From NCBI GenBank assembly GCA_965197425.1, contig CBDANC010000014.1, positions 224,001-288,000 of the forward strand: 64,000 nucleotides of DNA, read 5' to 3'. Below the pieces are notes generated by a model, which worked only from the letters and a program-made list of their open reading frames with translations, had not been told where the DNA came from and ran no database searches. Position numbers and translations under genes: made by a program. The stretch is from Bdellovibrionales bacterium (GTDB lineage: Bacteria; Bdellovibrionota; Bdellovibrionia; Bdellovibrionales; JAUICD01). Below are positions 4,980-39,032 of this stretch, piece by piece (the first letter of the stretch is position 1; each line of letters opens with the position of its first letter).

Positions 4980-5948
4980 ATGAAAGTTTTTAAATTTTTG
5001 TATGTAAAACCTGTATTGTTAATTTTAGTTTTAAGCTTTTCTACAAGCTGTAGCACTGACAACACTGATGAAAAAACTGCTGAAACACCAGCAGTAGCTA
5101 ATGAAGAAACAGAAATGACCAATGACTTGGCTAACGGTGATACCAGTGAAGAGACACAAGTAACTAATGGGGAAGTAGCTAATGAGATAGTGTCAACCGT
5201 TCCCACTCTCACCGCAGGACCTGCTAATGGTTGGTTGGATTCAGAAGGTGAAGTAGAAGTTAACAACGATAATTCTAGTGAAAGTAGTACATGGAGTGAT
5301 CTACCCTACGGGGTTAGAACCTATGTTAGGGAACAGACCTGCAGTGGAGGAGAAGTAATTAGCTCTGATTTAGTAGTTGATTTTAAAGATGTGGAACTTG
5401 CTCCTAATGTAGCCATTAGTAATGCTTACAGCTTGCCTTATATTTACTGTAATGATGAAAACACATATTGTAGCAGCTTTAAAATAGAGGATGGTGCCAG
5501 GCTCGTGAACAACGAAAGAACCCACAGTAACACCTTAGGATGGGAGGTCCCGGTGCTGTTTTTTGATGATCTAAGAAATAGTGACTACAATGTAACTCTT
5601 ATACCAAAATTTAAACGCAGAGATCCTTTGGATGGTAACAAAGTAAAGGAAATATTATTTGTTGAAGGAAATATAACTGTTAACTTCCCCAATACAAAAA
5701 CTTGTGGCGATAATGTTGGTGATGTTAGATGTGAGATTGAAAATGAATGCATAAATGCCCCTGAGTCTCACATCTGTATCTTTGACTACAGTAAATGTAG
5801 TAGTGGAAGCTCAACATACTTACACACTATTTCATGCAATAAAGGTTATGTGGAAACCACAGACGACACAGTTGGTGTGTTTTTTGGGACCGAAACCAAA
5901 TCACCCAGATTAGCTAAAAGGTGTGTTAAAGAAAGTACACAACACTGA
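4980..5948 (+). CDS. Cys-rich lipoprotein, paralog 4 of 4
   Basis: GGAG RBS, lipobox STSC, shared 10-Cys domain. Confidence 0.85.
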   Translation: MKVFKFLYVKPVLLILVLSFSTSCSTDNTDEKTAETPAVANEETEMTNDLANGDTSEETQVTNGEVANEIVSTVPTLTAGPANGWLDSEGEVEVNNDNSSESSTWSDLPYGVRTYVREQTCSGGEVISSDLVVDFKDVELAPNVAISNAYSLPYIYCNDENTYCSSFKIEDGARLVNNERTHSNTLGWEVPVLFFDDLRNSDYNVTLIPKFKRRDPLDGNKVKEILFVEGNITVNFPNTKTCGDNVGDVRCEIENECINAPESHICIFDYSKCSSGSSTYLHTISCNKGYVETTDDTVGVFFGTETKSPRLAKRCVKESTQH

Positions 5949-6003
5949 GAGACCATTGAAATAAACAACAGACTTACTCGTTTTTTCAGTGGCACTACGT
6001 TCC
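5939..6003 (-). repeat. dispersed hairpin element type A (inverted copy of 38909-38970)
   Basis: About 55/62 identical plus one 3-bp indel versus the reverse complement of 38909-38970; contains the stop codon of paralog 4. Confidence 0.9.
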
Positions 6004-6053
6004 CGATGGAACAAACCTCCTTGTTTTTTACCTCATTAAGCTCACCTTAAGCA

Positions 6054-6136
6054 ATGGTGTTGGCCGTGAGGTCCACCAGGAAGGAGCCACTCGGCAAAAA
6101 AAAGTAGGCAAAGCCTCCTTGTTTTTTTACCTCATT
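6054..6136 (-). repeat. dispersed element type C with embedded bidirectional terminator (inverted copy of 56159-56239)
   Basis: About 80% identical by eye to the reverse complement of 56159-56239; A8-GTAGGC-AAA-GCCTCC-TTG-T7. Confidence 0.85.
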
Positions 6137-6146
6137 AAGCTCACCT

Positions 6147-7036
6147 TTATAATTGATAAGATCTCATTATATTGCCTAGAATTTTATCTAACAAAGGCAC
6201 CGCTAAAAAAACCAACAGGCTTAAGTTTACTTTTATAAAAAACTTAAACCAATATTTAGAAATATCAGATAAGAAAAATCTAAAAAATTCAAATAACATC
6301 AACAACACACACGGAATTACAAGTACTAAATAAAAAAATCTAGTCTGCACAAACAAAGGAGAAAGAGCAGCTAAAGAAAGATAAGCAAACATATATAGGC
6401 CTATTTGATACTTAGTGAAAATCTCACCAAATTTAATAGGTAAAACAGGAACCCCTCCTTTTTTGTAATCTTCTCTATAACGAAGTGCCAAAGACCAAAA
6501 GTGTGGCATCTGCCACAAAAACATAATCAAAAATAATACACTATATCAGGGCTAAATAAACTAGAACTTTCATAAGCACAATACCCTATCACAACAGGCA
6601 TTGCTCCAGGTATAGCCCCAGGAACAGCAGCAAATGAAAGCTTGGGCTTAAACCACATAGTATATGCTCCATTATACATTAACACCGTTGCCATCCCTAA
6701 CAAGGAAGCCTTGATACTAACAACACTAAGAAAAAATAAGCCAAAACATAAAAGGGCAAGGCTTAATCTAAACCCAAAAATCCACGAAATTTTTCCAGCA
6801 GGAATTGGCCTTAAAGCAGTTCTGCGCATGCTAGCATCCAACTCTACCTCTTGCACTTGGTTTAAAGCACAACTGCCTGAAGCTAGCAGAATAAATCCAA
6901 CAGAAAATAACAGAAAATTTGAAACACTAAAGTTATTAAAGGTATCATGGCTAAACAAGTACCCAATAAGAGCAGAAAAATAAGACAACATTACTATGTT
7001 GAACTTAGTAAAGCACATCAAAGTTTTAATCATCAC
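6147..7036 (-). CDS. ctaB: protoheme IX farnesyltransferase (heme O synthase), split by a 1-bp frameshift near 6530
   Basis: Motifs [33 protein letters not shown], and WQMPHFW in the next frame; one base missing at or near the A5 run 6529-6533. Confidence 0.85.
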
Positions 7037-7350
7037 TCACTGCCAAATAGGTTGATCATATAATCTCTGGTAAATACATCAATGGAGCTTAAGGTAAAAA
7101 ACACAACCAAAAAGAAAAAAGCACTAAAGAAAGTAATTCTGTTCAAGGTACTCTCATACTTCTGATGCATAAAATACAAAATAACAATCATTGCCTTAAT
7201 AGAAGCAATTAGCATAGCTACCAGCACATTTATTATATTTAAGCCTAGATCAATTCTGGAAATCCATACTGTCATTACAGTCAAAATGACAAGTGAAATA
7301 TAAACAATTAAATAAACTCTAAATGGTGTTATGTGGTGAGTTTTTTCCAA
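7033..7350 (-). CDS. ctaF: cytochrome c oxidase subunit IV
   Basis: Three TM helices, IASIKA..VILYFMH motif, GGGAGG RBS with TTG start, operon context. Confidence 0.85.
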   Translation of the reverse strand: MEKTHHITPFRVYLIVYISLVILTVMTVWISRIDLGLNIINVLVAMLIASIKAMIVILYFMHQKYESTLNRITFFSAFFFLVVFFTLSSIDVFTRDYMINLFGSE

Positions 7351-7437
7351 ATAAAACCTCCCTTAAAAGTCTATCTAATGAAGTTAAAAACAAGTGTACT
7401 TGTTCAATCAAGGTCTTCCAACGGGACCAACAAGGTG

Positions 7438-7529
7438 AACTCCGTTTGCCTTTTGGCCAAGTGGTTGCCCAGCTCTGTTTGTAGAATACAACTCCAGTTG
7501 CTTTTTTAGCCAAATGATTGTCCAGCTCT
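7438..7529. repeat. degenerate duplication (~40-bp unit, ~52-bp period) inside the oxidase operon
   Basis: 7438-7476 versus 7490-7529. Confidence 0.75.
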
Positions 7530-7552
7530 TTATGTGTCATACAACCCCCCCC

Positions 7553-8203
7553 CTATACCAAATACAAAAGTGGAAACAAATAAATCCAAATTAAATCCAC
7601 AATATGCCAAAATAATCCTACACCCTCAACAGCAGTATAATAGTTAGGATTAAATTCGCCCTTATAATGGCGATAAGTAACCCAAGATATTAAACCCATA
7701 CCAGCCAACACATGTATTCCATGAAGGCCTGTCATACAAAAATAAAAACTAAAAAACAGTGCTAGGTTTTTTACCTCTGTATCACCTTGAAAGGCAAACT
7801 CAGAACCAGGAAATAATCCTAAGTGAAATTTATGGCTGTACTCAAAGTATTTAATTACCATAAATACAGCTCCACATAACACAGTAATAATTAAACTCCA
7901 AAAAGCTGCATCTCTTTTGTCAGTTTGTATATAATGTATTCCCAAAGCCATTGTTAAAGAACTGGTCAACAAGACAACAGTATTTATAGCCCCAAGCTTC
8001 CAATCTAAAAACTTGGCTCCCTCGGTAAAAACCTCTGGATATAAATTGTTAAATATGGCAAAGGCAACAAACAACCCACCAAACATTAATATCTCTGTGA
8101 CCATAAAGATCCAAACACCAAACTTTGAAGTTTTATACTCCTGAGCAACACTATCAAAGTGATGAGCCTGAGTATAAGGCTTTGAGGCTTTAACGATACT
8201 CAT
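7553..8203 (-). CDS. ctaE: cytochrome c oxidase subunit III
   Basis: [34 protein letters not shown] motifs. Confidence 0.95.
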
Positions 8204-9761
8204 AAGGACCCTCTGTTACAGTTGGAATTTCTAGAAAGTTTTCATGTGGCGGAGGAGATGATGTCTTCCACTCCAAAGTTTTACCACCCCAAGGATTATC
8301 TCCAGCTTTCTTCTTAGAATAAAAACCACCTATTACACAATACAATACAAAAAACAGACCAAGACCAATCATCCAAGATCCAATTGTAGAAACCATGTTC
8401 AAAGTAGCAAACTCTGGGATATAATCATGATACCTTCTAGGCATTCCTAAATTACCCAGGATAAACTGAGGGAAAAAGGTGACATTAAAACCTATGAATA
8501 TAAAAAACCATGACAGTTTGCCAATAAATTCATTGTACATTTTGCCAAACATTTTAGGATACCAATAAAGTATTCCACCCATAAGAGCCATAATAGTTCC
8601 ACCAACCATAACATAATGAAAATGAGCAACCACAAAATAAGTATCATGTAAGTGCATGTCTATAGCTATTGTGGCCAAGTATATCCCTGTTAAACCACCA
8701 ATAGTAAATATAAACAAAAATCCAATGGCATATAACATCGGTGAAGCTAATAAAATAGAACCTTTGTACATAGTCGAGACCCAGTTAAAACATTTTATTG
8801 CTGTGGGCACACCTACAAGCATAGTTAAAACCGAAAAGATCATAGTAGCTAACTCTGACTGACCACTAACATACATATGATGTCCCCAAACAAAAAAACT
8901 AATAACTGCTATTGCTACACTAGAAGCAGCAATGGCTTTATATCCAAAAATTGTTTTTCTAGAGAATGTTGTTATAAGTTCACTGATAATACCCATAGCT
9001 GGCAGAATCATAATATAAACTGCCGGGTGAGAATAAAACCAAAAGAAATGTTGAAATAGAATAGGGTCTCCACCCAGAGCAGGATCAAATATACCAATAC
9101 CAAAAGCCTTCTCCATCACTAACAACAGCAACGTTATGCCCAAAACAGGTGTAGCTAAAATCTGGATTACAGCAGTGGAATACAAACTCCAAACAAACAA
9201 AGGTAAACGTCCAAAGGTTAAACCTGGAGCTCTTAAATTATGTATTGTAGCTATAAAATTAAGTCCTGTTAAGACAGATGAAAATCCCGCTATGAAAGCA
9301 CCTAAGGTCACAAAAGTTACTCCAGCTTTGGAGCTAAGAGAACTATAGGGAGTATAAAAAGTCCAACCTGTATCTACACCACCAAAGAAAAGTGAAGCTA
9401 TAGCAACCACAGCACCTGTGACCAACAAATACCAACTAAGTAAATTTAACCTAGGAAAAGCCACATCCTTTGCACCCAAATGAAGAGGCAAAATAAAATT
9501 TCCTAAAAAAGCAGGTATTCCAGGAATAATAACCAAAAATACCATGATAGCTCCATGGTATGTCATAGCTTGGTTGTATTGATCAGGCGTAAGAAACTGC
9601 TGACCCGGCATCATCAACTCTAATCTAATTAAAAGAGCAAATAACCCTCCCAGAAGTAAAAAGAAAGAGATTGTAATAAAATACATAATCCCAATTCGCT
9701 TATGATCCAAGGTAGTCAACCAAGACCACAACCCTTTTTTATAATTAAGATAATCTGACAT
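8190..9761 (-). CDS. ctaD: cytochrome c oxidase subunit I (type A2)
   Basis: [40 protein letters not shown] motifs. Confidence 0.97.
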
Positions 9762-9770
9762 AATTAATTC

Positions 9771-10739
9771 CTATTTAAGCGATTTAATATACTCAATGAC
9801 TTGTGTTACTTGCTCTTCACTCAAAGTACCTTGAAACATTGGCATCTGTCCCGAAGGAAAACCTTCTACCAACACAGCGTTGGGATTTAATATAGATTCC
9901 CTTATATAATTATCATCACCTGTGATTGTACTTCCATCTGCTAAAGCTCTTATACTTCCATACAAACCTTTAAAAGACGGGCCTATTACTTTAGAACCAT
10001 CAGTTGAGTGACAAACTATACATAAACTTTTGTATGTCCTCTCGCCCAACTCTACCAAAGTAAACCCTTTTGTTTCATCAGTATTGAGATATTCTATAAA
10101 AGATGGTTTCTCTACAACATTAACCCAACCAATCATCCCAGAGTGAGCTGTACCACAATATTCTGCACAAAAAATTCTGTACCTACCCACCTTGGTTGGC
10201 ACAAATGAAAGCTTTGTTATGTAACCAGGTACCACATCTTGCTTTATTCTAAAACTTGGAATAAAAAAACTGTGCAAGACATCTTTAGATCTCATGCTCA
10301 AAATAACTCTTTCATTCACCGGTACTGTCAACTCATTTGCAGCAGTTTTGCCATTTTCATATTGAATAGCCCATGCCCACTGAAATCCAGTAACATGAAT
10401 ATTAATAGCATCCTCAGGAAACTCTCTTGTGTTTTTATAAACAACCCAACCCCAATAAAAAATTCCCAAGAACGTAACAAACGGAATGAAACTCCAAATA
10501 AATTCCAAAATATTACTGCCTGGAAGATATTCTACCTTGTCCTGCTCCGTACGCCTTCGATACCTGATAATAAAATACACCATGGCACCCATAAGAATCA
10601 CAAACACCACAATGCTGATAAAAGTTAAAAAATTATACAATGTATCTACAGATACACTGACCTTTGAAGCCTGCACCGGTAAGAACGAAGATTCATTACC
10701 TAAAGCATTAGGCAAAATATTTTCTAATAAATTTAGCAT
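9771..10739 (-). CDS. ctaC: cytochrome c oxidase subunit II with fused cytochrome c
   Basis: CuA motif DVLHSF...CAEYCGTAHSGM; heme c motif CIVCH. Confidence 0.96.
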   Translation of the reverse strand: MLNLLENILPNALGNESSFLPVQASKVSVSVDTLYNFLTFISIVVFVILMGAMVYFIIRYRRRTEQDKVEYLPGSNILEFIWSFIPFVTFLGIFYWGWVVYKNTREFPEDAINIHVTGFQWAWAIQYENGKTAANELTVPVNERVILSMRSKDVLHSFFIPSFRIKQDVVPGYITKLSFVPTKVGRYRIFCAEYCGTAHSGMIGWVNVVEKPSFIEYLNTDETKGFTLVELGERTYKSLCIVCHSTDGSKVIGPSFKGLYGSIRALADGSTITGDDNYIRESILNPNAVLVEGFPSGQMPMFQGTLSEEQVTQVIEYIKSLK

Positions 10740-10819
10740 AGTATTGACCTAAAGGTTTCCTTTATTAAAATCTACCCACCTAATTTTCTTACCTGGCTTA
10801 ATTCCTACAAGCTTTAGGT

Positions 10820-11656
10820 TTAAAATTTGGGTTTTTCTTTTTTAAACCAAAAAGGTATCAAAAAAATACCTAACATAAAAACAGTTAGCCCTGCTCCCAG
10901 TTTTAAAGTATTTAAAGCTAGTAGGCTATACTTTCCATCTTTAGGATTATAGTTGAAGCAGTACAACATAAACCTATCTAATACAGTACCAATTTTTCCA
11001 TCACTTGCCTCAACCAAAGAGAGCCTAACAGTTTGAACATCTGGGCTTATGCCATAAATATAACGAGATATTTTTCCGTTAGGAGTAAGAACATAAGACA
11101 CAGCAGGATGGATCCATTGGTTTGTCTCTTCATTCCATCTGTAGTTAAACCCAAGGCTATCTGCTAACTTCTTTGCATTCTCACTATCTGAAGTTAAAAA
11201 ATGCCAGTCTTTAGAATTTAATTTTTCTACTCCATACATATCCATATAATATTTCTTCTTGGTATTTGCCATAGTTGAATCATCTTTAGATTCAAAACTT
11301 ACTACTATAAAATCAAACTCCGAGCCAGGAGCCCACTCACTTTGCTTGAACATCTGCACCAACCCATTCAAATGATAGTTACAAAGCCCAGGACAAGAGT
11401 AATAAACCATTACTAAAAACACAGGCTTAGTAGAGATCAAGTCTTTTAGTTTTATTTTTTGATTATCTTCGTTAATTAAATCGACATCTAAGGCTACATT
11501 CTCACCTAAATGCTCATTTACCTGAAGGCCTTTTACAGACTCTGGCGACTTGTCAGCTACCATCTGTTTTTTCCAAGGCAAATCTCCATGAGATAAAGGA
11601 GATAGTAATAAGGTTAGCACAAATACTCTAATATAAAGAGAACAGAATACCTTCAT
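10820..11656 (-). CDS. SCO family copper chaperone
   Basis: CPGLC (CxxxC) plus conserved His, signal peptide, C-terminal TM, oxidase operon context. Confidence 0.9.
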   Translation of the reverse strand: MKVFCSLYIRVFVLTLLLSPLSHGDLPWKKQMVADKSPESVKGLQVNEHLGENVALDVDLINEDNQKIKLKDLISTKPVFLVMVYYSCPGLCNYHLNGLVQMFKQSEWAPGSEFDFIVVSFESKDDSTMANTKKKYYMDMYGVEKLNSKDWHFLTSDSENAKKLADSLGFNYRWNEETNQWIHPAVSYVLTPNGKISRYIYGISPDVQTVRLSLVEASDGKIGTVLDRFMLYCFNYNPKDGKYSLLALNTLKLGAGLTVFMLGIFLIPFWFKKEKPKF

Positions 11657-12183
11657 ATACCCTCTTCATCCAAACTTTGCCATTCATCCACAGTGGAAGC
11701 TTTAGGGTTGGCAATTTCAGATCTGATATAATGAGTAAGGTTCCACCTTACTTGACTGGGTAAATACTCCAAACTATGAAATCTAGGATCCGAAACTCCA
11801 TGGGTAAGGGCTTTATAAATTTCAACCTCTGAACTTCCATACTCACTCTGCAGAATCTTTACAAAAAAATCAGCTACATCACCTATAGCATTTACCTCAT
11901 AGAGTTGTTTGCCCTTTTCAACTGCACTGTCTGTGGCTGTTCGCCACAATTTGTCCCTATTAGCTTTGTCTTCTAAAGTGAAGGTATCGCCCCACTCATA
12001 CTCCATATTGTCTATAGGACCTTGGTTTAACAAAAAAACCAATATAAAAAACAAAGCAACAAAACCTAAGGAAAATAACATAAATAAAACAGCCTTTGTG
12101 TTCTTAGGATTAGATAAATCCCTACCCTCTACCTGAGTGCCATTCAAGTTAGAGTTATTGCTGTTATTTTTACTATCTTCCAA
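11653..12183 (-). CDS. membrane-anchored protein resembling cytochrome c but lacking CxxCH
   Basis: One TM; AVEKGKQLY and RWNLTHYIRS helices; no Cys. Confidence 0.55.
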   Translation of the reverse strand: MEDSKNNSNNSNLNGTQVEGRDLSNPKNTKAVLFMLFSLGFVALFFILVFLLNQGPIDNMEYEWGDTFTLEDKANRDKLWRTATDSAVEKGKQLYEVNAIGDVADFFVKILQSEYGSSEVEIYKALTHGVSDPRFHSLEYLPSQVRWNLTHYIRSEIANPKASTVDEWQSLDEEGI

Positions 12184-12375
12184 GGCAAAACCCCTTACTG
12201 TATGATCATTAGAGCAATTTAATTGCTAAGGAAACACATTGTCCATTGCAACATAACTTTTTCCAACCACAGCATAGAAGGGTTATTATCATAGAACAAA
12301 ACTATGTTATTTTTAGCCCAATAAGTAGATCAACTCACTTTATCAATTTATTTGAAAAAGTAAGCCTTTATAAGA

Positions 12376-12471
12376 TATAGATAATCCCTACGGGATAAGT
12401 ATAGATAACCCCTACGGGATAGGTATAGATAACCCCTACGGAGTAGGTATAGATAATCCCTCAAGAGATGG
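12376..12471. repeat. tandem repeat, 4 x 24 bp
   Basis: Unit TATAGATAAYCCCTACGGGATARG starting at 12376, 12400, 12424, 12448 (last two diverged). Confidence 0.95.
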
Positions 12472-12510
12472 TCGGGTTTAAATGCGGAGGATAGGTTTTA
12501 AGTGACAATA

Positions 12511-12580
12511 TCAAAACACAATTCATATGGCAAAAACCTGGTAAAGCCAGATTCTTTGCCATATTCAATCAGTGTTTGGA
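12511..12580 (+). repeat. dispersed hairpin element type B upstream of dnaX
   Basis: TCAAAACACAATTC-[ATATGGCAAA...TTTGCCATAT]-TCAATCAGTGTTTGGA. Confidence 0.75.
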
Positions 12581-12590
12581 GAAGATAACA

Positions 12591-14168
12591 ATGAGTTATA
12601 CACCGATTGCAGGCAAATGGAGACCACAAATTTTTCAAGAGGTAATAGGTCAGGAAACTACAACCACTACACTTATAAACTCGCTAAAATTTCAGAGAAT
12701 ACCACATGCTGTTTTGTTCACAGGTCCTAAAGGGGTAGGAAAAACCTCAATGGCACGCATACTGTCTAAAGCTATAAATTGCCAAAACAAAGAAAATGAG
12801 TATACCCCATGTTGCCGGTGTCAGATGTGCAAAGAAATAGCTCATGGATCCAATATTGATGTTGTAGAAATCGATGGAGCTAGTAATAGTGGTGTTGAGG
12901 CTGTACGGAGCTTAATTGATGGAGCTGGCTATAGCCCCTTTAAATGTAAATTTAAAATTTATATTATCGACGAAGTACATATGCTATCAAATAGTGCTTT
13001 TAATGCTCTTTTAAAAATATTGGAAGAACCTCCTAAACATGTAAAATTCATCTTCGCCACAACTGAACACAAAAAAATACCTTTAACCATACTATCTCGA
13101 TGTTACAGATTTGATTTAAAAAAAATATCAACCAGTCAAATAGCAAAACATCTAGAATTTATATGTAAAAAAGAAAAAATAAAATTTGAAACAGAAGCAA
13201 TTTCAAGAATTGCAAGAAGCTCAGACGGATCAATGAGAGATAGTCAAGTTGCCCTAGATCAAATTATTTCATTTTCAAAAGAAAACCTAACAGAAACCCT
13301 AGCAGAAGAAGTTCTGGGCCTTACAAATAAAAGTACTCTACTGAAGATACTGGACTGTTTGTTTAAAAGGAAAATTGACTCTAGTATAATCAAAGAGATT
13401 TCAAATGGATCTCACAGTCCAAATGCATTCATAAATGACCTACTATTAGAACTAAGAAATTGTATTATGGTTAAAGAGTTTGGATCTAATAATATGTTAG
13501 ACCTATCAGAGAGTGAAATCAGTAATTTATCAGATATAATTCAAAATACCTCAAGTGAAGATATACATATGCTATTTGATATGACACTTAAAGGGGCTTC
13601 CGATTTAACTACATGCGAAAACCCACAAATTGTACTGGAGATGATCTTAATAAGAATGGCAAATGCCCCCAAAATAGAGGCTTTGTCAAATATAAATACT
13701 TATAACAAAACAGAGCCTGATAACGAAGTACCTATCCTTACAAAGGAAAACAGTAAAATCCCAAGTTTTCGAGGTTTTGTTGATTTTGTGGATAAAAAAG
13801 GTGAAGGCCACATAGCCTCTGTATTGGGAAATTGTAGATTTGATTCAATTAAAGATGACTTTTTTGTCATCAGTTTAGATAAAGACAAGCACTCTATGGA
13901 ATTTCAAACTATAGATAAATATAAAAATGAAATCGAAAGCTTAATAGCAAGCTTTTATGGCAACAAGTTACAATTACAAGTAAGCGAAACTGACAAGGGA
14001 GATCACCTTTCCAAAACCCCAAATGAAGAAAAAAAAGAAGAGATTGTAAAAAAAAAAGATGAATTAAAAAAACAGGTGGAAAATGAGCCAGTAGTACAAG
14101 ATTTTAAAAAAATATTTAATTCAGATATAAGAAATATTGTGTCAAATAAACCTAAAAAAGACAGGTAA
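12591..14168 (+). CDS. dnaX: DNA polymerase III subunit gamma/tau
   Basis: KWRPQ, GPKGVGKT, Zn cysteines, EIDGASN, IIDEVHML, TILSRC. Confidence 0.96.
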   Translation: MSYTPIAGKWRPQIFQEVIGQETTTTTLINSLKFQRIPHAVLFTGPKGVGKTSMARILSKAINCQNKENEYTPCCRCQMCKEIAHGSNIDVVEIDGASNSGVEAVRSLIDGAGYSPFKCKFKIYIIDEVHMLSNSAFNALLKILEEPPKHVKFIFATTEHKKIPLTILSRCYRFDLKKISTSQIAKHLEFICKKEKIKFETEAISRIARSSDGSMRDSQVALDQIISFSKENLTETLAEEVLGLTNKSTLLKILDCLFKRKIDSSIIKEISNGSHSPNAFINDLLLELRNCIMVKEFGSNNMLDLSESEISNLSDIIQNTSSEDIHMLFDMTLKGASDLTTCENPQIVLEMILIRMANAPKIEALSNINTYNKTEPDNEVPILTKENSKIPSFRGFVDFVDKKGEGHIASVLGNCRFDSIKDDFFVISLDKDKHSMEFQTIDKYKNEIESLIASFYGNKLQLQVSETDKGDHLSKTPNEEKKEEIVKKKDELKKQVENEPVVQDFKKIFNSDIRNIVSNKPKKDR

Positions 14169-14192
14169 CCTTCTTTTTCTAAAAACCGTGAC

Positions 14193-14331
14193 GTAACCTC
14201 TTTAGTGTTTAGGACATGTCATGTCAATTTTTCATTAACTAATAAACCTTTATTATTAACTAATAAACCTTTATTATTAGATAAGTTAGATAAGGTAGCC
14301 TCTTTAGTGTTTAGGATATGTCATGTCAATT
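14193..14331 (+). repeat. 37-bp direct repeat (102-bp period) enclosing a 21-bp tandem duplication
   Basis: 14193-14229 versus 14295-14331 (2 mismatches); 14234-14254 equals 14255-14275. Confidence 0.9.
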
Positions 14332-14925
14332 ACTCCCTGTGTGGACAGATTAGTTAATGAGCTTTCTAAGCTTCCAGGAATTGGAGAAAAGAGTGCTCAA
14401 AGACTTTCTTATTTCATAATCAAAGCTGGCTCCAGTTTTACTTCAGGTTTACTAGAAGCATTGTCTGACATAGAAAATAAAATCAAACCATGTCAGATGT
14501 GCTTTTCCTATACAGAAGAAAGGCAGGTATGCAAAATCTGTGATGATCCCAACAGATCAAATGATATAATTTGTGTGGTAAAAAACCCTTCTGACATATT
14601 AAAGATAGAATCGTCCGGGGTGTACAAAGGTAAATACCATGTTCTACAAGGTGTTTTAGATTCCTCAAATATGAAAGATGACTCTATAAGAATTAAAGAA
14701 CTCTTGGAGAGAATGGACAACATATCTGAGGTAATACTGGCTCTAGACACAGATTTTGCAGGAGATATGACATCTGCTTACATTGCAAAGCTACTTATGA
14801 AAAATAAAAGCAATGAACATCTAAAAATTACCAGAATCGCTAGAGGCATACCTTTTGGATCTGACATAGAGTACATAGATCAAAGAACACTTAGTGGAGC
14901 ATTAGAGAACAGGACTTCATTGTAA
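14323..14925 (+). CDS. recR: recombination mediator RecR
   Basis: LPGIGEKSAQR HhH, C4 zinc finger, Toprim domain (YHVLQG, TRIARGIP). Confidence 0.95.
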   Translation: MSITPCVDRLVNELSKLPGIGEKSAQRLSYFIIKAGSSFTSGLLEALSDIENKIKPCQMCFSYTEERQVCKICDDPNRSNDIICVVKNPSDILKIESSGVYKGKYHVLQGVLDSSNMKDDSIRIKELLERMDNISEVILALDTDFAGDMTSAYIAKLLMKNKSNEHLKITRIARGIPFGSDIEYIDQRTLSGALENRTSL

Positions 14926-15509: not shown

Positions 15510-15568
15510 CGACTTACTAGAACAGCGTTGGTTATATCAACTATTTTAAGTTTTAGATTTAGATTATT

Positions 15569-16508: not shown

Positions 16509-16672
16509 TGAAAACTCCCCCACTAATTAACATAAAAAACAAATCAAAAGATCAGAACTGTGCAATGGATTTTTTACAACGGTGTTGCATTTATAATCAA
16601 ATTACACTAGCCTAGCAAGACCATTTTGGGGGGTTTGAATTTACTTCACGATAAAAAATTTGCGGATATCTA

Positions 16673-25286: not shown

Positions 25287-25564
25287 AGCCATTGTGAGTA
25301 AAAAAACCTATTAATAAAACTTAAAGACCGTTTTGTACTAAACCATAACATACACTGTACCTATGACAATAAGCTAGTGGGCCACAACATCCACTTATAA
25401 GGTGCTAGATTTATAGGTCAGAAATATGTTTGATTTTCCTCCTTTGGCTATGATAGAACTTGGTTTCTGTATGTGTCATCCAAAATTTTTTAGTAAAAAT
25501 TTTAGTAAAAAATAGTTTGTAAAAAACATAAACACCAAACGCAAAAGGTTAAGTGAGGGTCGCC

Positions 25565-27800: not shown

Positions 27801-27867
27801 GTGTTATCCCCTTTGGGATAGTAAAATTTGTATGCTACTATAAATTCTGTAATATTTGGATTATTCA

Positions 27868-28284: not shown

Positions 28285-28480
28285 ATTATATATTGGCTTA
28301 CTCTTTACAAATTAATTGAAGTAAGATTGTCCATTTGCGATCTGGAAAAGAATCCAGTTTCTACAACATGTTTTTTAGAAAAATATAGAACTTTGGACAA
28401 AGGAAACCGAAAGAGAATACCTAGAAGGCAAAAGACGAAAGGGAAGAAAAAGAGCAACAGGAAGTAAAGGGAATATAAAA

Positions 28481-29029: not shown

Positions 29030-29073
29030 AGAAGACCTCTTTTTATAAAAGCAGCAACTTGCTTAAAAATAAA

Positions 29074-29370
29074 TTATTCATTTAAGTCTGCTTTCAAAAG
29101 CTGACTTGGTTTAAAAGATAAAACTTTTCTAGCACTAATTTTAATGCGTTCTCCAGTTTGAGGGTTTCTACCCATCCTTTCTTTTTTTTGATTTACAGTA
29201 AAATTACCAAAACTAGATAACTTAATGTTGCCATCTTCTTTTAAAGATTTTTTAAGAAGATCAAACACTGTCTCAACCATCTTAGCACTGTCTTTTTTTG
29301 AAAACCCAATCTTAGAATAAATTTTTTCTACCAAACATGCCTTGGTAACTGTACGAACAGAATCAGACAT
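29074..29370 (-). CDS. ihfA: integration host factor subunit alpha
   Basis: KLSSFGNF, GRNPQTGE, FKPSQ; follows pheT. Confidence 0.9.
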   Translation of the reverse strand: MSDSVRTVTKACLVEKIYSKIGFSKKDSAKMVETVFDLLKKSLKEDGNIKLSSFGNFTVNQKKERMGRNPQTGERIKISARKVLSFKPSQLLKADLNE

Positions 29371-29396
29371 AAGCACCTCTTTTAGAATAAGTTAAG

Positions 29397-31820: not shown

Positions 31821-32833
31821 AGTTGCCTCAAGAATCTAAGATCATTTTCAAAAAACAATCTGATGTCCTCTATTTTATATTTTATTATAGCCATACGCTC
31901 TATACCCATACCAAAAGCAAAACCCTGCCATTTTTCAGGATCAATTCCTGAAATTTTAAGTACATTTGGATGAACCAAACCACAACCAGCAATTTCCATC
32001 CATCCTGTGTGCGCACACATACTACAGCCTTTTTTGTTGCAGAGTATACATGTACAATCAACCTCAGCAGATGGCTCTGTAAATGGGAAAAAACTTGGTC
32101 TAAACCTAATCTCTACATCACCAAAAAATTCTTTTGCAAAAAAATCCAAGGAACCTTTTAGATCTGCCATGGAAACATTTTTATCTATCAATAGCCCCTC
32201 TACTTGGTGAAACATAGGGCTGTGGGATATATCACTATCGCATCTAAACACACTCCCTGGACCTAACACACTAATAGGTAGAGTTTCTTCTCTCATAGTC
32301 CTTACCTGTATAGGACTTGTATGTGGTCTTAGGGAAAAGTTGTGATCTATGTAAAAAGTATCCTGCATGTCTCTGGCAGGATGATCCTTCGGAATATTTA
32401 AAGCTTCGAAGTTATTTTCATCTGAATCAATACACGGGCCAGTTCTTACATAAAATCCAAGCCTTGAAAAAATATCTATAATTTCATCCATAATAGTATC
32501 TATTGGATGTAGTGAACCCAAAGATGGTGTGATAACTCCAGGTAACCCCAAATCTATTGGTTTCTTTAATTCCTCTAAAAGAGCTACATCTGCTAATTTT
32601 TTTTTACATTCTTGATATAGGCTTTCTAGCTTATTTTTAGTTTTATTTAAAACTGACCCTATATGCTTTTTTTGATCGGCATCTGGAATACTGCCAATGC
32701 TTTTCATCAACAAGGAAAGTTCACCCTTTCTACCCAAAAATTGAACCCTGGCTTGTTCCAACGACGATATGTCTTCTGCCTTTTTGAAAGTTTGGGAGGC
32801 CAAGTTTTCTAAATTGTGTATCTGTTTTTCCAC
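31817..32833 (-). CDS. pheS: phenylalanine-tRNA ligase alpha subunit
   Basis: HPARDMQDTFY, FHQVEG, FFPFTEPS, GFAFGMGIER; GTG start at 32833 chosen for typical length. Confidence 0.96.
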   Translation of the reverse strand: MEKQIHNLENLASQTFKKAEDISSLEQARVQFLGRKGELSLLMKSIGSIPDADQKKHIGSVLNKTKNKLESLYQECKKKLADVALLEELKKPIDLGLPGVITPSLGSLHPIDTIMDEIIDIFSRLGFYVRTGPCIDSDENNFEALNIPKDHPARDMQDTFYIDHNFSLRPHTSPIQVRTMREETLPISVLGPGSVFRCDSDISHSPMFHQVEGLLIDKNVSMADLKGSLDFFAKEFFGDVEIRFRPSFFPFTEPSAEVDCTCILCNKKGCSMCAHTGWMEIAGCGLVHPNVLKISGIDPEKWQGFAFGMGIERMAIIKYKIEDIRLFFENDLRFLRQL

Positions 32834-32898
32834 GGTGTGAATATAAAATAGTTTTAAATTGTAAGCAAAGGTATTATTGTAAGCCAAAAAACAATTTA

Positions 32899-32922
32899 TT
32901 GCCAGATTCAATCAGTGTTGGA
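32899..32922 (+). repeat. right arm of a degenerate type B element
   Basis: TTGCCAGATTCAATCAGTGTTGGA versus TTGCCATATTCAATCAGTGTTTGGA upstream of dnaX. Confidence 0.65.
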
Positions 32923-32931
32923 AAGAGCTTA

Positions 32932-33651
32932 ATGAAATTAATAACTAGTACTAAAAATGAACAATTTAAGCTTCTCAAATCTCTTTTGACATCAAAAGGT
33001 GTGAAGAAAAACAACCTATGTATGGTAATGGGAAGGCAACACCCAAAAAGCAAAATAGAGCTGGAAATTCTTCCAAAGGATTGGTCAGATGCTTCCAAAT
33101 CTACAAATCAAATTTTTCTTACTAAAGAGCTATTTAATAAGCTAGACATTCTAGGGACACATCATCCAATTTCAGTTATAAAAACTCCAAAATTACCCAA
33201 ATGGAACGAACAAGATAAGTTGGAAGGGAAAGAAGTATTAATTCCACTTAAAGATCCTACAAACTTAGGCAGCGTCATACGGTCATGTGTAGCATTCGAC
33301 ATGGATAAAATCATTCTGTTGAATGGAGTAGCAAACCCATTTTTACCCAAAGTTATAAAGACCTCAAACTATGCGGTGCTTAACAAAAAAATATTTGTAG
33401 GCCCAAAAGCAGAAGATATTAAAAGTTACATAGCTCTTAACTCAAACAAAGGCATAGACATAAAAAGCTTTAAATGGCCTAAAAAGGGAAGACTTATGAT
33501 AGGAGAAGAAAGAGGCCTTGTCGTAAACAAACTTGCCTTGGATAAATCTGATCAAGTCAAACATGTTAATATACCAATGGCTAAAGGCTTTGATTCATTA
33601 AACTCTTCTGTGGCTGCTAGTATTGCAATGTATAGCTGGAAAAATTCGTAG
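32932..33651 (+). CDS. TrmH/SpoU family RNA methyltransferase
   Basis: DPTNLGSVIRS, IGEERG, IPM...SLNSSVAASI SPOUT motifs. Confidence 0.88.
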   Translation: MKLITSTKNEQFKLLKSLLTSKGVKKNNLCMVMGRQHPKSKIELEILPKDWSDASKSTNQIFLTKELFNKLDILGTHHPISVIKTPKLPKWNEQDKLEGKEVLIPLKDPTNLGSVIRSCVAFDMDKIILLNGVANPFLPKVIKTSNYAVLNKKIFVGPKAEDIKSYIALNSNKGIDIKSFKWPKKGRLMIGEERGLVVNKLALDKSDQVKHVNIPMAKGFDSLNSSVAASIAMYSWKNS

Positions 33652-33674
33652 TTTTAGAATTACAAAAGAAAGAC

Positions 33675-34397
33675 TTATTGCCTGTTTTGTCTCTTTTTTT
33701 CTGCTTTATATCTTTTAGCCGCTGCTTTAGATCTACTTTTTACTTTTCTTCTTTTGTTTTTCAATGCCGTTTTGCTGGCTGAGGCTTTACGCAGAGCTTT
33801 TTCGGTTTGTTGTCTTTGCTTGTGTGCTTTAATTTCCCAATCAGTAGCATCTTTTTCAGATTTTTTTACCTTTTGCCTTAAAGCACTTACTTCTCTTTTA
33901 GATTTTGCAATATCTTGTTTTCTGTTTTTTATGTCTTTTTTATAATTAGCTATTTGTTTTTCTACAGATCGTTTATCTTTCTCCAATTCACTCTTAGTAT
34001 TCAAAGAAGCTTTAAGGGCATCTTCCGCACTCTGCAACTGTTCCTTGTGATTCTTTTCTTTAAGCTCTAAAGCACTAATAATCTCTTCTAATCTTGTGAT
34101 CTCTTTATTTGCTTTGAAAGTTTTGTCCTTAGCAATATTATATTTTTTCTTTACTCTATTTATGACTGCTTTAGTTCTTCTTTCTACAGATTCTCTTTTC
34201 TTCTTTGTATTGCTAAGTTTTATTTGAGTTTGTCTCTCTTCTCTATCTGCTTCACGAGCCTCTTCTTCTGCTAACCTAGCTTCTTCCTCCAATTCATCCA
34301 CATCCACTTCTTCAAATTCCAGGTGAATATCATCTTCAATCTGAGCATAGGAATAACCAGGGGCAACCATTAATAGTGTAATAAATAAACACTTCAT
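33675..34397 (-). CDS. secreted coiled-coil protein (acidic N-terminus, basic C-terminus)
   Basis: Signal peptide ending SYA; long heptad region. Confidence 0.7.
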   Translation of the reverse strand: MKCLFITLLMVAPGYSYAQIEDDIHLEFEEVDVDELEEEARLAEEEAREADREERQTQIKLSNTKKKRESVERRTKAVINRVKKKYNIAKDKTFKANKEITRLEEIISALELKEKNHKEQLQSAEDALKASLNTKSELEKDKRSVEKQIANYKKDIKNRKQDIAKSKREVSALRQKVKKSEKDATDWEIKAHKQRQQTEKALRKASASKTALKNKRRKVKSRSKAAAKRYKAEKKRQNRQ

Positions 34398-34408
34398 CTT
34401 AAGTCTAG

Positions 34409-34435
34409 GTTCGGAATTTAATAGACAAAGCTTAA
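34409..34435 (-). promoter_or_regulatory. sigma-28-like promoter
   Basis: Minus strand TTAAG-N16-CCGAAC, 11 bp before ATG 34397. Confidence 0.55.
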
Positions 34436-34513
34436 GTTTATCAGAGCCTAATGTGCCTAATTTCTAAATTACAACTAGACTTTGATACTAAAAGGATGCT
34501 TAAACAGTGGGGC

Positions 34514-35176
34514 ATGTTTAATGTAGCTCAAAGCTGGAAGCCCATTTTACAAAGTGAGTTTGAAAAATCCTACTGGCAAACCTTAACTGGGTTTTTAGAA
34601 AAAGAGTATTTGAATAATACAATATTTCCGCCAAAACCACAGGTATTTAGATCGATGGGCTTAGCTCCTTTTAACAGCATAAAGGTAGTTATAATAGGCC
34701 AAGACCCATATCATGGAGAAGGCCAGGCCAATGGCCTTTGTTTTTCTGTGAACAAAAAAGTAACCCTTCCTCCTTCTCTAAAAAATATTTTTAAGGAACT
34801 ACAAGATGACTTGGGAATTTTGAACACCTCAGGAGATTTATCTAATTGGGCCAGTCAGGGGGTTTTGCTCTTAAATTCAACCTTAACCGTTAAAAAGGGA
34901 TTGGCTGGGTCACACCAACTGAAAGGATGGGAGCAGTTTACAGACCATATAATAAAGAAAGTAAGCAGTAAGCTTAATAATATTGTGTTTATTCTATGGG
35001 GTTCTTATGCAATTAAAAAAGGAGAAGTAATAGATAAAACCAAGCACTTTTGTTTAAGTTCAGCACATCCCTCTCCATTTTCTGCAAATAGAGGTTTTTT
35101 TGGTTCAAAACCATTTTCTAAAACCAACATATACCTAAGGAAGCACAATTTAAATATGATAGATTGGAGTACCTAA
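34514..35176 (+). CDS. ung: uracil-DNA glycosylase (family 1)
   Basis: GQDPYH, PPSLKNIF, GVLLLN, AHPSP. Confidence 0.96.
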   Translation: MFNVAQSWKPILQSEFEKSYWQTLTGFLEKEYLNNTIFPPKPQVFRSMGLAPFNSIKVVIIGQDPYHGEGQANGLCFSVNKKVTLPPSLKNIFKELQDDLGILNTSGDLSNWASQGVLLLNSTLTVKKGLAGSHQLKGWEQFTDHIIKKVSSKLNNIVFILWGSYAIKKGEVIDKTKHFCLSSAHPSPFSANRGFFGSKPFSKTNIYLRKHNLNMIDWST

Positions 35177-35200
35177 AGAAACACTACATAACTACCGACT
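35174..35200 (+). promoter_or_regulatory. sigma-28-like promoter
   Basis: TAAAG-N16-CCGACT, 11 bp before ATG 35212. Confidence 0.55.
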
Positions 35201-35211
35201 ACGTTTACGCT

Positions 35212-36678
35212 ATGTTCTCTTATAAGAATGCCTGTTTATTTGCTATAATTGTATTGCTTACAGCACAAACTTCATGGACACAAGATAATGATAATGCAGA
35301 TATTCAAAACGACGGGCTGAATCCAGAATCAAGGGCATGTAGAGCTTCTTACGAAACCTACAGTCGTGCAAGAGAAGCCAGAAATAGAGCCTGCCCTTCA
35401 GAAAACCTAACTAGTTGTGAACAAAAGATATCGGAATGCACAGAAATGCTAGAAAATATTTTTCCAGCAACAACTTCAGGAAGAATTAATACTAATCAAG
35501 TTGAAAGTTTTGAAGAGGCTTGTCCTGGAGTTCTGGGTTCATTCAGTGGACGTAGAGGTGGAATAAAACAAAGAATGGATAGGCTACTTCAAGAACGAAA
35601 AGAAAACATCGACAATGCAAAAAAAGATTATGACAAAGTTAAGCAAAGAAGAGAAGCAAAAATTAAAAAGCTAGAAGAAAAGCTAGACAAATTGACAAAC
35701 GGCACACCAACCGAAGGTGACAAAGAAAAATCACTGAGTGAAATGTCAATAGGTGAGCTAGATGCAAAAGCCTCAGAATTAACTAACAGTAATAGAGAGA
35801 TGGAGCAAAAAACAGTGGAATATATGGAGGCTCTTAATGGAGAAAACGGAATACTAAAAAAATTAAACGACGCAAGGAAAAACATAGCTACTGCTAGAAG
35901 AGCTTATAGAGACGTTGAGCAAAGACTAGTTATACAATGTGACGAGACAGTAGAAGGGGAATTAGCTACATTTGATAGACGATTTAGAGCCAGAAGATCA
36001 AATCAAAGCAGAAGGGCAATAAGGGCGAGAGAAAAGCGTAAATTATATGCCAGATGCATGGCACGAAAAGCAAACACAATTGCACTATCAAATGCAAGAG
36101 AAGATTATACACAAACACTAAATACTCTCCAACAAGAGATAAATAGGCTACAAACTTCGCTTCAAGACAGAGAACAACAATATCAAATGGAATTACAAGA
36201 GGTCGAACAAAATAAACGAAGAAGGCTTCTAGAAATACAGCAAGAAAAACAAAGAAGAATTTCAGAGTTATCTAACATAACAAAGGAACTTGCAGAGGTT
36301 AAGTCTCCAAGTAGAGAAGAAGAGAGATTAGGCAGAGAACTAGAAGAAGCATCTGAAGCGTTAGATGAACAAACAACCACCATTGAAAACTTAGAATTAC
36401 GCCTAGGAGGTGTAATCTCTAATGAAGATCCTAATACCGAGCTACTAGCAGACATCTACACAGATCAAAAGTTTGAATCTGCAAAACAAATTGCTCTGGA
36501 TGAATGTTGTATTCCAAATTCCAGTAATGGTGAACCAACAATATCATATATAAAATCGCAGAGTATTAGTGGTGTATCGGGAGCAAGTAATTTCTGCAGA
36601 ACAACAACTACACCAAATCCTGATGCAGGAAATGGAGGATCTCCTCCTCCCTCCGAAACAGAGGCAGTGCCAAACTGA
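35212..36678 (+). CDS. secreted long coiled-coil protein with Cys-rich ends
   Basis: Signal peptide, Cys clusters at both termini, central heptads. Confidence 0.75.
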   Translation: MFSYKNACLFAIIVLLTAQTSWTQDNDNADIQNDGLNPESRACRASYETYSRAREARNRACPSENLTSCEQKISECTEMLENIFPATTSGRINTNQVESFEEACPGVLGSFSGRRGGIKQRMDRLLQERKENIDNAKKDYDKVKQRREAKIKKLEEKLDKLTNGTPTEGDKEKSLSEMSIGELDAKASELTNSNREMEQKTVEYMEALNGENGILKKLNDARKNIATARRAYRDVEQRLVIQCDETVEGELATFDRRFRARRSNQSRRAIRAREKRKLYARCMARKANTIALSNAREDYTQTLNTLQQEINRLQTSLQDREQQYQMELQEVEQNKRRRLLEIQQEKQRRISELSNITKELAEVKSPSREEERLGRELEEASEALDEQTTTIENLELRLGGVISNEDPNTELLADIYTDQKFESAKQIALDECCIPNSSNGEPTISYIKSQSISGVSGASNFCRTTTTPNPDAGNGGSPPPSETEAVPN

Positions 36679-36724
36679 TAAAACAAATATTTTTACAGGA
36701 CATTTCTACTGGATAGCAGATGTG

Positions 36725-36790
36725 TCAAAACGTAATTCATCCATCAAAAATAGAACAAGTCCCATTGTTTGCTGGGACTCAATCAGTGCT
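36725..36790 (+). repeat. dispersed hairpin element type B
   Basis: TCAAAACGTAATTC-[imperfect stem, loop containing AACAAGTC]-TCAATCAGTG. Confidence 0.75.
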
Positions 36791-36948
36791 GAGGAAGACC
36801 TTGAGAAACTTAGATCAGCATCGTGTTCCAGAGCTGGGCAACCATCAATTATCGAATATCCCTGATTGCCCGACTGCCTGCTCAGATACTAAATCTATAC
36901 TTTAGTTCAGTAAAATAAATGACACCTTATAGGTTACAATCTTACTCT

Positions 36949-37815
36949 ATGAAGTCTTTTGTGCTGCTGATATTGATCTTGTTCCAAACAACAAATGCCA
37001 TAGGCTCTATGGGAAATCACAAGATAGAATCCTCTCTAATATTTGATCTACCCATAGAGTACAACCCACATGTTCAAAAGTGGATAAACTACTTTCAAAA
37101 TTCCGGTAGAAAGCATTTTTCCAAATGGCTTGAACGACATAAAAGTGTAGTACCTAGAATACAAGACATCTTAGAAACACATGGTCTTCCAAGAGATCTG
37201 GTTTACATGGCCATGATTGAAAGTGGTTTTTCACCCTATGCCAAATCACATAAAGATGCTGTAGGTCCGTGGCAATTTATAAAACCCACCGCAGAACGCT
37301 TTGGTTTAAAAGTAAACTCATGGATTGATGAAAGAAAGGATATTGATAAAAGCACAATAGCTGCTACCAGATACCTAAAATATCTCTATGGAATGTTTGG
37401 CTCTTGGTACCTAGTAGCTGCTGCATATAATACAGGAGAAAATAGAGTACATAGAGCAATAATAAAGCACAAAACCAAAAACTTTTGGGAACTTATCAAA
37501 AATAACGCCCTTCACAGCGAAACAACAAATTATGTTCCAAAACTAATAGCAGCCATGTTAATTGCAAAAGCCCCAGGGCTCTATGGCTTTAGACAAATAA
37601 ACTACAAAAATCCAACCCTGTTTGCATATTTTAGCTTCCCAGGTGGAACAAATATCAAAAGCTTAAGTAAATACCTAAATGTAAACTCAGAGGTTATAAC
37701 AGGTCTAAACCCTGAACTAAACTTAACTACAATCCCAAGCTTTGTTAGATCACATAAAATCAAGATACCCCTACACTCAATGAACAGAGCACAGGAGTAT
37801 ATCAAAACTCTATAA
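36949..37815 (+). CDS. MltD-like lytic murein transglycosylase
   Basis: AMIESGF, AVGPWQF, AAYNTGE, ETTNYVPK. Confidence 0.9.
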   Translation: MKSFVLLILILFQTTNAIGSMGNHKIESSLIFDLPIEYNPHVQKWINYFQNSGRKHFSKWLERHKSVVPRIQDILETHGLPRDLVYMAMIESGFSPYAKSHKDAVGPWQFIKPTAERFGLKVNSWIDERKDIDKSTIAATRYLKYLYGMFGSWYLVAAAYNTGENRVHRAIIKHKTKNFWELIKNNALHSETTNYVPKLIAAMLIAKAPGLYGFRQINYKNPTLFAYFSFPGGTNIKSLSKYLNVNSEVITGLNPELNLTTIPSFVRSHKIKIPLHSMNRAQEYIKTL

Positions 37816-38790
37816 ACAATTTTTTAACCAAGAAAGGAAGTTTAATCTTCTTTTGGATATGTCAAAGTGTCCGCCTTCAAATTCCTCATAGTGTAATTTA
37901 AAATTGTGTTCTTTTAAAATTTGCCAAATACGGTATGTACCAAACCCAAGGGAAAATTCATCAGACTTACCACACTCTAAAAAAACTGACTTTAATGTCT
38001 TTAAATTTTCTTTTCTTTTTTCTAAAAAAACTACTGGATCATGCTCTTTCCACTTATCCCAAATTTCTTTCTTTAAAATTCCTGTATTGAGATCAACTGG
38101 AAGCTCTATTTTAGTCTTTGGACAATAACAAGCAGACATTGCCACAGTTTCTATTGCAGACATATCCTTTACTTCACCCCTTTGTATAAGGTTGAGGGTT
38201 TCATCCAATCCAGTTTTTTTGATAAAAGCACAAGCTTTATAGATTGAGGGCAAATAACAGGTCTCAAAAAAAGAGTCCGGTGCTATAGCTCCCACATGTT
38301 TAAAAATAGAATGTTTGCTTGCAAGCTGTAAAGCCCCATAGCCTCCACTTGATCCTCCAAAAATTGCCCACAAATTATGGTCATCACAAAATTCTGAGGA
38401 TATTATGGGGGATAGCTCTTCTACTATATGATCTTCATATCTACCCACAATAGGACTATTTAAAAATTGACTTCCTCCTAAAGAAGACGAAGCATCCACA
38501 AAAACATAGACCGCTTGTGGAATGTTTTCAAAGTTACTGTCTATCATTTGAGGAAAATTATCTTCGTTCATCCATTTAATATTAAAGTAACCAGGACCTG
38601 TGGATGAAAATCCTGATAGAATAAAAACCACAGGACATTTATCCTTTTTGTTCTTCGGAACAAGTAAGATATGTCTTTTTGTAGAAGGGTCATTTAAATG
38701 ATTATCTACCAACACCTTACTTTCTAGCTCAAGGGTCTGTATTTCAAAATGTCCCAAATCAATATAATTAAAGCCTTTTGTAATTTTCAT
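37810..38790 (-). CDS. alpha/beta hydrolase (Fes-like esterase)
   Basis: GGSSGGYGA nucleophile elbow, C-terminal EEFEGGH. Confidence 0.8.
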   Translation of the reverse strand: MKITKGFNYIDLGHFEIQTLELESKVLVDNHLNDPSTKRHILLVPKNKKDKCPVVFILSGFSSTGPGYFNIKWMNEDNFPQMIDSNFENIPQAVYVFVDASSSLGGSQFLNSPIVGRYEDHIVEELSPIISSEFCDDHNLWAIFGGSSGGYGALQLASKHSIFKHVGAIAPDSFFETCYLPSIYKACAFIKKTGLDETLNLIQRGEVKDMSAIETVAMSACYCPKTKIELPVDLNTGILKKEIWDKWKEHDPVVFLEKRKENLKTLKSVFLECGKSDEFSLGFGTYRIWQILKEHNFKLHYEEFEGGHFDISKRRLNFLSWLKNCL

Positions 38791-38908
38791 ATTTTTACCT
38801 CTTAATTTTGCCGTCAACACTATGAAAGATATAATGATATCACAAATTTTGGTTGATGTATGGTACCTTAGGCTTTATGAAACTGTATGCAGTTGAAGTA
38901 ACTGTGCC

Positions 38909-39032
38909 GGAACGTAGGACCACTGAAAAAACGAACAAGTCCGTTTATTTCATTGGCCTCTCAGTGTTGTTGAACGTAATTCGCCTGACAAAAAAGCAAC
39001 AAGTCACTTTTTGGTCAGGCTCAATCAGTGTG
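38909..39032 (+). repeat. two tandem hairpin elements (type A then type B) in the speA leader
   Basis: Both begin GAACGTA, have AACAAGTC in the loop and end TCAGTGT; 62-bp period. Confidence 0.85.

Follow-up and report, generated by a model that had tools for sequence, protein, structure and literature searches.

The window analysed here (positions 224001-288000 of contig C14, 64,000 nucleotides of a Bdellovibrionales genome) carries several copies of a hairpin of about 60 nt with AAC and GTT at its edges, which an earlier note, made from the letters alone, had described as a dispersed, attC-like family. This hairpin, called type A in the following, proved by self-comparison and motif pairing to be one subfamily of a larger repeat, which occupies 219 loci and 27,760 bases of the source genome (1.60 Mb in 15 contigs, 35% G+C, completeness 99.4%); the census combines four profiles, and the control sequence scored alongside gave none. 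Overall, the units are very probably mobile, gene-less and selected for their structure. The family is real, and it appears to be undescribed within a known broad kind, the small non-autonomous palindromic repeats, with an unusual polarity, an unusual stacking and a missing enzyme; no published description of it was found in the part of the literature that was searched.

The unit contains no gene and has a constant order: a leader bearing a small hairpin comes first, then a long imperfect hairpin, and then a fixed right box. In the commonest type, the left box GCTGGGCAACC has 146 matches, against 16 in the control, and it is paired with the right box GGAAGACCTT 97 times, against once in the control. 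Unit lengths run from about 95 to 165 nt, with clusters near 95, 124 and 163 nt; type A is the 95-nt unit, and its leader starts about 18 nt ahead of AAC. Since half of the type A copies (14 of 28) extend into the common right box, at most 16 nt past GTT, AAC and GTT are internal to the unit and are not its boundaries, as had first been supposed. Units are stacked head-to-tail on the same strand at 138 of 140 loci in one count and at 212 of 219 loci by the profiles. They meet at CC|TT, after which comes T, G or A, and then in most cases A; the base after CC-TT is C in at most 3%, and the next base is A in 66-70% of terminal ends. Modules mix freely (36 leader-hairpin-tail combinations in 125 units), and 20 of the 125 unit bodies are matched at 97% or more by a distant copy, so that some copies look young from their sequences. 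Nested and left-truncated copies are common. Of the 121 leaders that come first in an array, 33 have a right-box remnant ahead of them, where chance would give 1%. The source genome has more right ends than left ends (137 vs 108), a rough comparison since the two patterns differ. Inspection of the unit ends for terminal inverted repeats gave at most a weak 7-nt match. No full target duplication was seen, the shared prefix averaging 1.3 nt in the source genome and being at chance level in its congener, with an 8-nt duplication at 1 of 46 terminal units. Among the orphan left boxes inspected (24 of 161 and 8 of 131), none enclosed a gene together with a right end.

Mobility is seen in comparison with the sole congener, a single-contig genome (93% complete) that is syntenic with the source genome at about 75% identity. 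Its family consists of units of about 125 nt with boxes related to those of the source genome, and the profile of its main subfamily gives 119 loci and 23,875 bases as a lower bound. Profiles cross-detect full units between the two genomes (E 8e-6 to 0.05; control 0), and by this sequence likeness the two families appear to be homologous. The elements make up 1.5-1.7% of these reduced genomes. Among 804 gene gaps conserved between the two, 92 hold an element in the source genome only, 12 in the congener only and 13 in both; the gaps filled only in the source genome are longer by a median of 180 nt. Sites filled in both genomes are more frequent than by chance (odds ratio 8); they could be insertions of old date or gaps that are favoured. 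The two families are mostly at different sites, and therefore the units appear to be mobile. The comparison of orthologous loci that had been proposed for the window gave the same picture, since the congener has no element in the speA, lytic-transglycosylase and oxidase gaps.

The second line of evidence comes from folding. Stems of type A vary in sequence and still pair, as the earlier note had stated: in 14 copies, 89.6% of cells are paired, with 22 two-sided changes, and 0 of 500 shuffles equalled this. Watson-Crick pairing of the arms is 0.81, against 0.49 with arms swapped between copies (0 of 2000; 23 distinct arm pairs), and the outer stem of type A pairs in register across 7 positions. 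The bottom strand is the more stable one in 26 of 28 (type A), 58 of 71 and 77 of 98 distinct copies; fixed mismatches are pyrimidine pairs on the top strand, hence tandem G-A on the bottom. Triloops closed by C-G are purine-N-A in 59 of 59 cases in the source genome (40 further distinct copies lack such an apex) and in 67 of 73 in the congener (20 copies lack it), with N taking all four bases, against 34% in the control and background. According to the available part of PMC13037366, DNA mini-hairpins closed by C-G are far more stable than their RNA counterparts. Covariation, strand stability and the triloop rule are together pointing to a stage as single-stranded DNA (ssDNA). Of the interpretations first offered for the hairpins, a mobile palindrome with conserved structure, probably acting as ssDNA, has stood, while membership among attC sites and an RNA leader motif have not.

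In the window, the five clear copies read as described in the earlier note, and a type A profile built from 27 copies, all outside the window, recovers all five. The strict pattern occurs 17 times in the source genome, one of them probably by chance, and not at all in a 1.6-Mb Markov-3 control. A weak copy suspected at 32.9 kb is a real fragment (32892-32922, profile E 2e-6); two others, at 4890-4936 and 25351-25433, had no profile match at E up to 5 and were dropped. Members of other subfamilies at 6013-6150, 7364-7545, 36804-36847 and 56145-56240 had gone unnoticed. The features are as follows.

5938..6005, minus strand: type A unit, GTAG subtype (profile E 5e-5); its end gives the TGA stop of the opposite-strand open reading frame (ORF) 4980-5948.
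6013..6048, plus strand: left-truncated unit, right arm and CTCACC-type right box (profile E 9e-5).
6046..6150, plus strand: complete type C unit (E 4e-26), head-to-tail after the 6013-6048 fragment, abutting the end of the heme o synthase ORF 6147-6530.
7364..7545, minus strand: nested composite, a type B unit (7407-7493) within an older B unit, between the oxidase subunit III and IV genes; the gap is 9 nt in the congener.
12494..12583, plus strand: type A unit with leader and decayed right box (profile), before the dnaX ATG at 12591.
32892..32922, plus strand: left-truncated type A unit, right arm only (profile), before the TrmH/RlmB-family ATG at 32932.
36715..36802, plus strand: complete type A unit with leader, AAC...GCT hairpin and right box to the CC-TT junction (36791-36802) (profile E 5e-17).
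36803..36847, plus strand: continuation of the array by a second unit, which has a type B leader and left box and breaks off after the first stem bases (profile).
38862..38872, plus strand: CC-TTA junction directly after host sequence shared with the congener, the probable left end of the pre-speA insertion (boundary inferred).
38893..38973, plus strand: type A unit, GTAG subtype, with leader (profile).
38972..39039, plus strand: tandem type A unit ending at the TT-ATG of speA (39037) (profile); the gap is 29 nt in the congener, with no element.
56145..56240, minus strand: hybrid unit of type C leader, short hairpin and type B right box (E 3e-19).

The heme o synthase gene (6147-7036) is split in overlapping frames (6527-7036 and 6147-6530) by a frameshift or an assembly error. 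Short degenerate repeats at 36855-36885 follow the truncated unit and resemble those beside the four-helix-bundle genes mentioned below; the same juxtaposition is seen at several other arrays.

Relative to genes, 136 of 139 loci are intergenic, and 83 of 139 are on the strand of the downstream gene, which matches the 56% expected from gap types. Units also occur inside ribosomal-protein and rpoBC operons. Terminal right ends are located -3 to +15 nt from a start or an opposite-strand stop in 58 of 150 cases in the source genome and 29 of 73 in the congener, against about 9% expected, which would be explained by a TT(N)A target, since this word fits reverse TAA stops and TT-ATG. An inserted unit would thereby put GGAAG at ribosome-binding distance. 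Copies ending 4-15 nt ahead of the ATGs of dnaX, the TrmH-family gene and speA had been correctly noted, and because TT(N)A targeting would account for them, an RNA leader is unneeded. Further points against the leader are that Rfam recognised one tRNA only in the window and nothing in six element loci at E up to 1, that the speA and lytic-transglycosylase gaps are empty in the congener, and that the bias in gene orientation is only the expected one. Elements are found in 23% of short synteny-break gaps, against 14% (source genome) and 3% (congener) of conserved gaps, a difference that does not separate cause from effect. The window block 37854-40924 (esterase and speA) is inverted in the congener; a family member lies at one breakpoint there (32932-33078), and another repeat near the other (36307-36377) is a candidate only.

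Outside the two genomes, exact patterns occurred in 0 of 40 and 0 of 60 relatives, and 400 sampled genomes of the phylum (the congener being outside the sample) gave 0-2 matches each, near the control level. Profiles run on 200 kb each of two sister-genus genomes (G002 and G004) found nothing, and virus scans (among the matches listed) and a metagenome scan gave single, chance-like matches. A scan of species genomes for the congener's leader returned one genome with many copies, plus two singletons elsewhere. In runs X3 and X4, the strains have type A copies whose stems are different. In the same two sister-genus genomes (C1:1-200000 of each), very dense hairpin repeats of similar design and different sequence are arranged head-to-tail; the runs in G004 have a 231-nt period, and 7 of 8 tandem junctions scored in G002 are CCTT-AAC. 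This likeness is one of design only, the sequences being different, and does not establish a common origin. Contigs C1, C4, C11, C9 and C10 of the source assembly are probable contamination: C1 and C11 bear the sister-genus repeat, C11 has a second ribosomal-protein cluster, the present family is at none of C1, C4 and C11, C10 is phage-like in appearance, and C9 has a frame that we take to be piggyBac-like.

The search for the mover covered ten protein families (PF00239 included), a part of the proteome, and plasmids or phages may have stayed outside the bins. Tyrosine recombinases (PF00589), XerC/D included, are absent from both genomes (controls 14 of 14), as are reverse transcriptase (PF00078), IS110 (PF02371) and TnpB (PF01385). 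The only PF01541 match is a UvrC-sized frame (612-614 aa), the only PF04480 match lies within a 1,408-aa frame of the congener, and a weak relaxase match in G002 is an amino-acid dehydrogenase. A scan for HUH motifs in proteins common to the two genomes gave 9 matches, none convincing. Two gene families were set aside as movers since they are not shared. One, in the source genome, has 29 members of about 100 aa, presumably four-helix-bundle-like (e.g. C13:69751-70044 and C14:310784-311098), which are flanked by 7-8-nt tandem repeats; it is not in the congener. The other, which we take to be Rpn/YhgA-like nucleases, is essentially limited to the congener (22 genes, e.g. C1:686176-686838), the source genome having one such gene, on the suspect contig C4.

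The sole shared recombinase found is a serine recombinase of 230-239 aa, single copy, 77% identical and in the same gene context, before dcd, in both genomes (C12:4669-5388 in the source genome; C1:1095237-1095929 in the congener). Upstream of it is a conserved palindrome, found in its exact form once in each genome, and the gene is not flanked by units. In the congener it lies 29 kb from the GC-skew maximum, and it may substitute XerCD/dif in chromosome dimer resolution. In G002 there are nine related copies or fragments, three of them full length (C1:2152835, 1902272, 1034807 and six more), often beside ankyrin genes, and these are possibly a mobile element. It is very improbable that this resident enzyme moves the units through a TT two-base core. 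Serine recombinases suit such a core and inversions, and the enrichment of elements at synteny breaks fits as well, as do the single copy and shared context; however, the enzyme has a palindrome of its own, its gene stands apart from the units, and serine recombinases read duplex DNA, which leaves the covarying stems unexplained.

The preferred scheme, held tentatively and at somewhat less than even chances, is that the unit is non-autonomous and depends on an HUH-type nicking enzyme acting in trans, in the manner of IS91 or IS200; the enzyme is postulated and not found. The unit would spread as a folded single strand of DNA, which an HUH-type transposase supplied from outside the two genomes would nick and paste at TT(N)A words. 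The bottom strand would be the substrate, and the right box would be the end at which the enzyme starts, as oriIS is in IS91. Such a start would account for the left-truncated copies and for the tandem runs. The junction of one unit may serve as target for the next, leading to arrays. Selection would retain those insertions that fall between genes, on reverse TAA stops or on TT-ATG; at TT-ATG, GGAAG would replace the ribosome-binding site. The dispersed copies would then promote rearrangements.

In the available part of PMC13181058, the IS91 family is characterised by the lack of terminal inverted repeats and target duplication, a CTTG or GTTC target beside oriIS, a bottom-strand circle, and a leaky terIS. 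The units agree with this rolling-circle type in that they lack inverted ends and a real duplication, run in tandem, fold on the bottom strand, and have left ends that are loose and a single fixed end; imperfect subterminal palindromes are another likeness. The fixed end is next to CTT-D (T, G or A), where G is in the minority. The differences are that the units are 95-165 nt long and in arrays, and that no transposase gene is in or near any copy. The match to the logic of IS200/IS605 and of repetitive extragenic palindromic (REP) sequences (available parts of PMC8266576, PMC6006769 and PMC3733652) is looser.

Several results weigh against an HUH-type mover. Y1/RAYT transposases (PF01797), which the earlier note had proposed to look for near dense clusters, are absent from both genomes in spite of the young-looking copies, and no relaxase (PF03432) was found in either. 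Y2 transposases (PF04986) are likewise missing from both; they occur in 0 of 5 genomes of the family to which both belong, although 80 of the 384 genomes of the order have them. In a comparison with IS91-like elements from 25 loci of the order (14 with a readable frame), the units have no sequence in common with the ends of these elements and no likeness to their oriIS or terIS (best profile E 0.9). Reads, examined over one stretch, revealed no circle or empty allele, the strains that are 90-99% alike assembling short and bridging no element; the one back-joint, in run X3, is repeat-prone. IS200/IS605 elements should show replication-strand bias (available part of PMC6006769), whereas no lagging-strand orientation bias is seen here (70 of 147 and 73 of 129). 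Guide-target covariation of the IS608 type is weak, G after TT being found in 22 of 54 vs 6 of 28 ends among kin copies. Short B and A units have the purine loop on the top strand, not on the bottom. Copies are related by descent, so that counts are non-independent and shuffle tests overstate. As side observations, the Y1 loci of G003 and G004 carry other hairpins, and IS91-like transposases of order relatives (loci L434-L443) have an integrase-like gene upstream and a shared motif about 200 nt downstream.

Among known repeats, the units resemble REP sequences and bacterial interspersed mosaic elements in being hundreds of intergenic imperfect palindromes, with subfamilies of alternative paired stems and mosaic clusters, as well as in the CT within the junction and the GTAG at the hairpin foot of one subtype (available parts of PMC8266576 and PMC3733652). 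However, GTAG is confined to a minor subtype (4 strict matches vs 1 in control, of 242), most units having GTAA or GCTG, and the units, which include a leader and a tail, have three to four times the length of REP sequences; no RAYT is present in either genome. The repeats of REP clusters alternate in orientation (available part of PMC2817692), unlike the same-strand units. The comparison may be extended to the gene-less repeats of other lineages. PATE are non-autonomous IS200/IS605 derivatives, and Correia, RUP and BOX are repeats of the type of miniature inverted-repeat transposable elements (MITEs). The units are like these in being short, gene-less, mobile and lineage-restricted, with AT-rich words near gene ends and a BOX-like modularity, and are unlike MITEs in having neither terminal inverted repeats nor a fixed target duplication. 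By the features tested, the units are not REP/RAYT, IS91 or MITE.

The other explanations differ in what would do the moving. It is unlikely that there is no dedicated enzyme at all and that host template switching at hairpins, RecA-type conversion and microhomology capture at TT(N)A made the copies. Exact local tandems, the free mixing of modules and the absence of any tested mobiliser family save the housekeeping-like resolvase are in agreement with this, and terminal units share more bases with the following host DNA than by chance (1.33 vs 0.76; source genome only); however, the 92 lineage-specific sites, one right box, near-constant lengths and one junction word in two species suggest that the ends are recognised. 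A rather unlikely reading is an undescribed class of ssDNA mobile element whose mover is outside the catalogued transposases and recombinases. Replication proteins of the host might suffice for it, or it might use an unrecognised nicking enzyme, encoded by the host or by a replicon that was left unbinned.

It is improbable that the units are cassettes without genes that belonged to a divergent tyrosine recombinase of the integron type, which acted on the folded bottom strand, with a crossover at N-TT and insertion at short words across the genome, and which has since been lost. Like attC sites (available parts of PMC5027507 and PMC4889954), type A has a hairpin of that size with AAC and GTT, variable stems and same-strand arrays; a better-folding bottom strand and GAA-type loops are also attC features (available part of PMC5027507), and the TT junction is suitable. 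IntI inserts cassettes genome-wide at the short word GWT without replication bias (available part of bioRxiv 2022.09.11.507474), as would match the lack of strand bias here. Against this, the R boxes as defined in PMC5027507 (available part) fail, with RYYYAAC in 0 of 28 and GTTRRRY in 1 of 28, and at least three of the outer four positions pair in 2 of 28. The central spacers are 7 and 9 nt, where attC has 5-6 nt per arm, AAC and GTT lie within the unit, the junction of type B lacks a GTT, and no PF00589 match exists in either genome. Unlike integron attC, CALIN or SALIN sites, the units are dispersed at about 220 loci without cassette genes or an integrase. It is still less probable that the copies were kept or made as regulatory parts (bidirectional terminators, ribosome-binding sites) or moved via an RNA copy. 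The nearness of right ends to starts and stops, the shape of A-tract, stem and T-tract, and the terminator-like score of the 36.7-kb copy agree with such a role; however, the sites are not conserved between congeners, units stand within ribosomal-protein and rpoBC operons, no reverse transcriptase or Rfam match was found, and the loops obey a DNA rule.

The family bears on the question of how small palindromic repeats, REP-like ones among them, multiply, particularly in small genomes without a visible transposase. Two complete or near-complete congeneric genomes now offer 219 sites and 119 sites, most of them independent, in which the ends and the junction word are defined and the folding follows a clear ssDNA code, while the usual enzymes are missing; a leader and right box found around a gene would be a precise bait for the mover. 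The family is a clean case in which 1.5-1.7% of a reduced genome has been remodelled at gene starts, stops and synteny breaks, and it shows that attC-like hairpins can arise outside integrons. If the class of ssDNA element considered above exists, it would have spread through an entire family of reduced Bdellovibrionales, since units are equally dense in the sister genus, with a CC-TTAAC junction, and it would rewrite ribosome-binding sites and gene ends and seed rearrangements in genomes without XerC/D.

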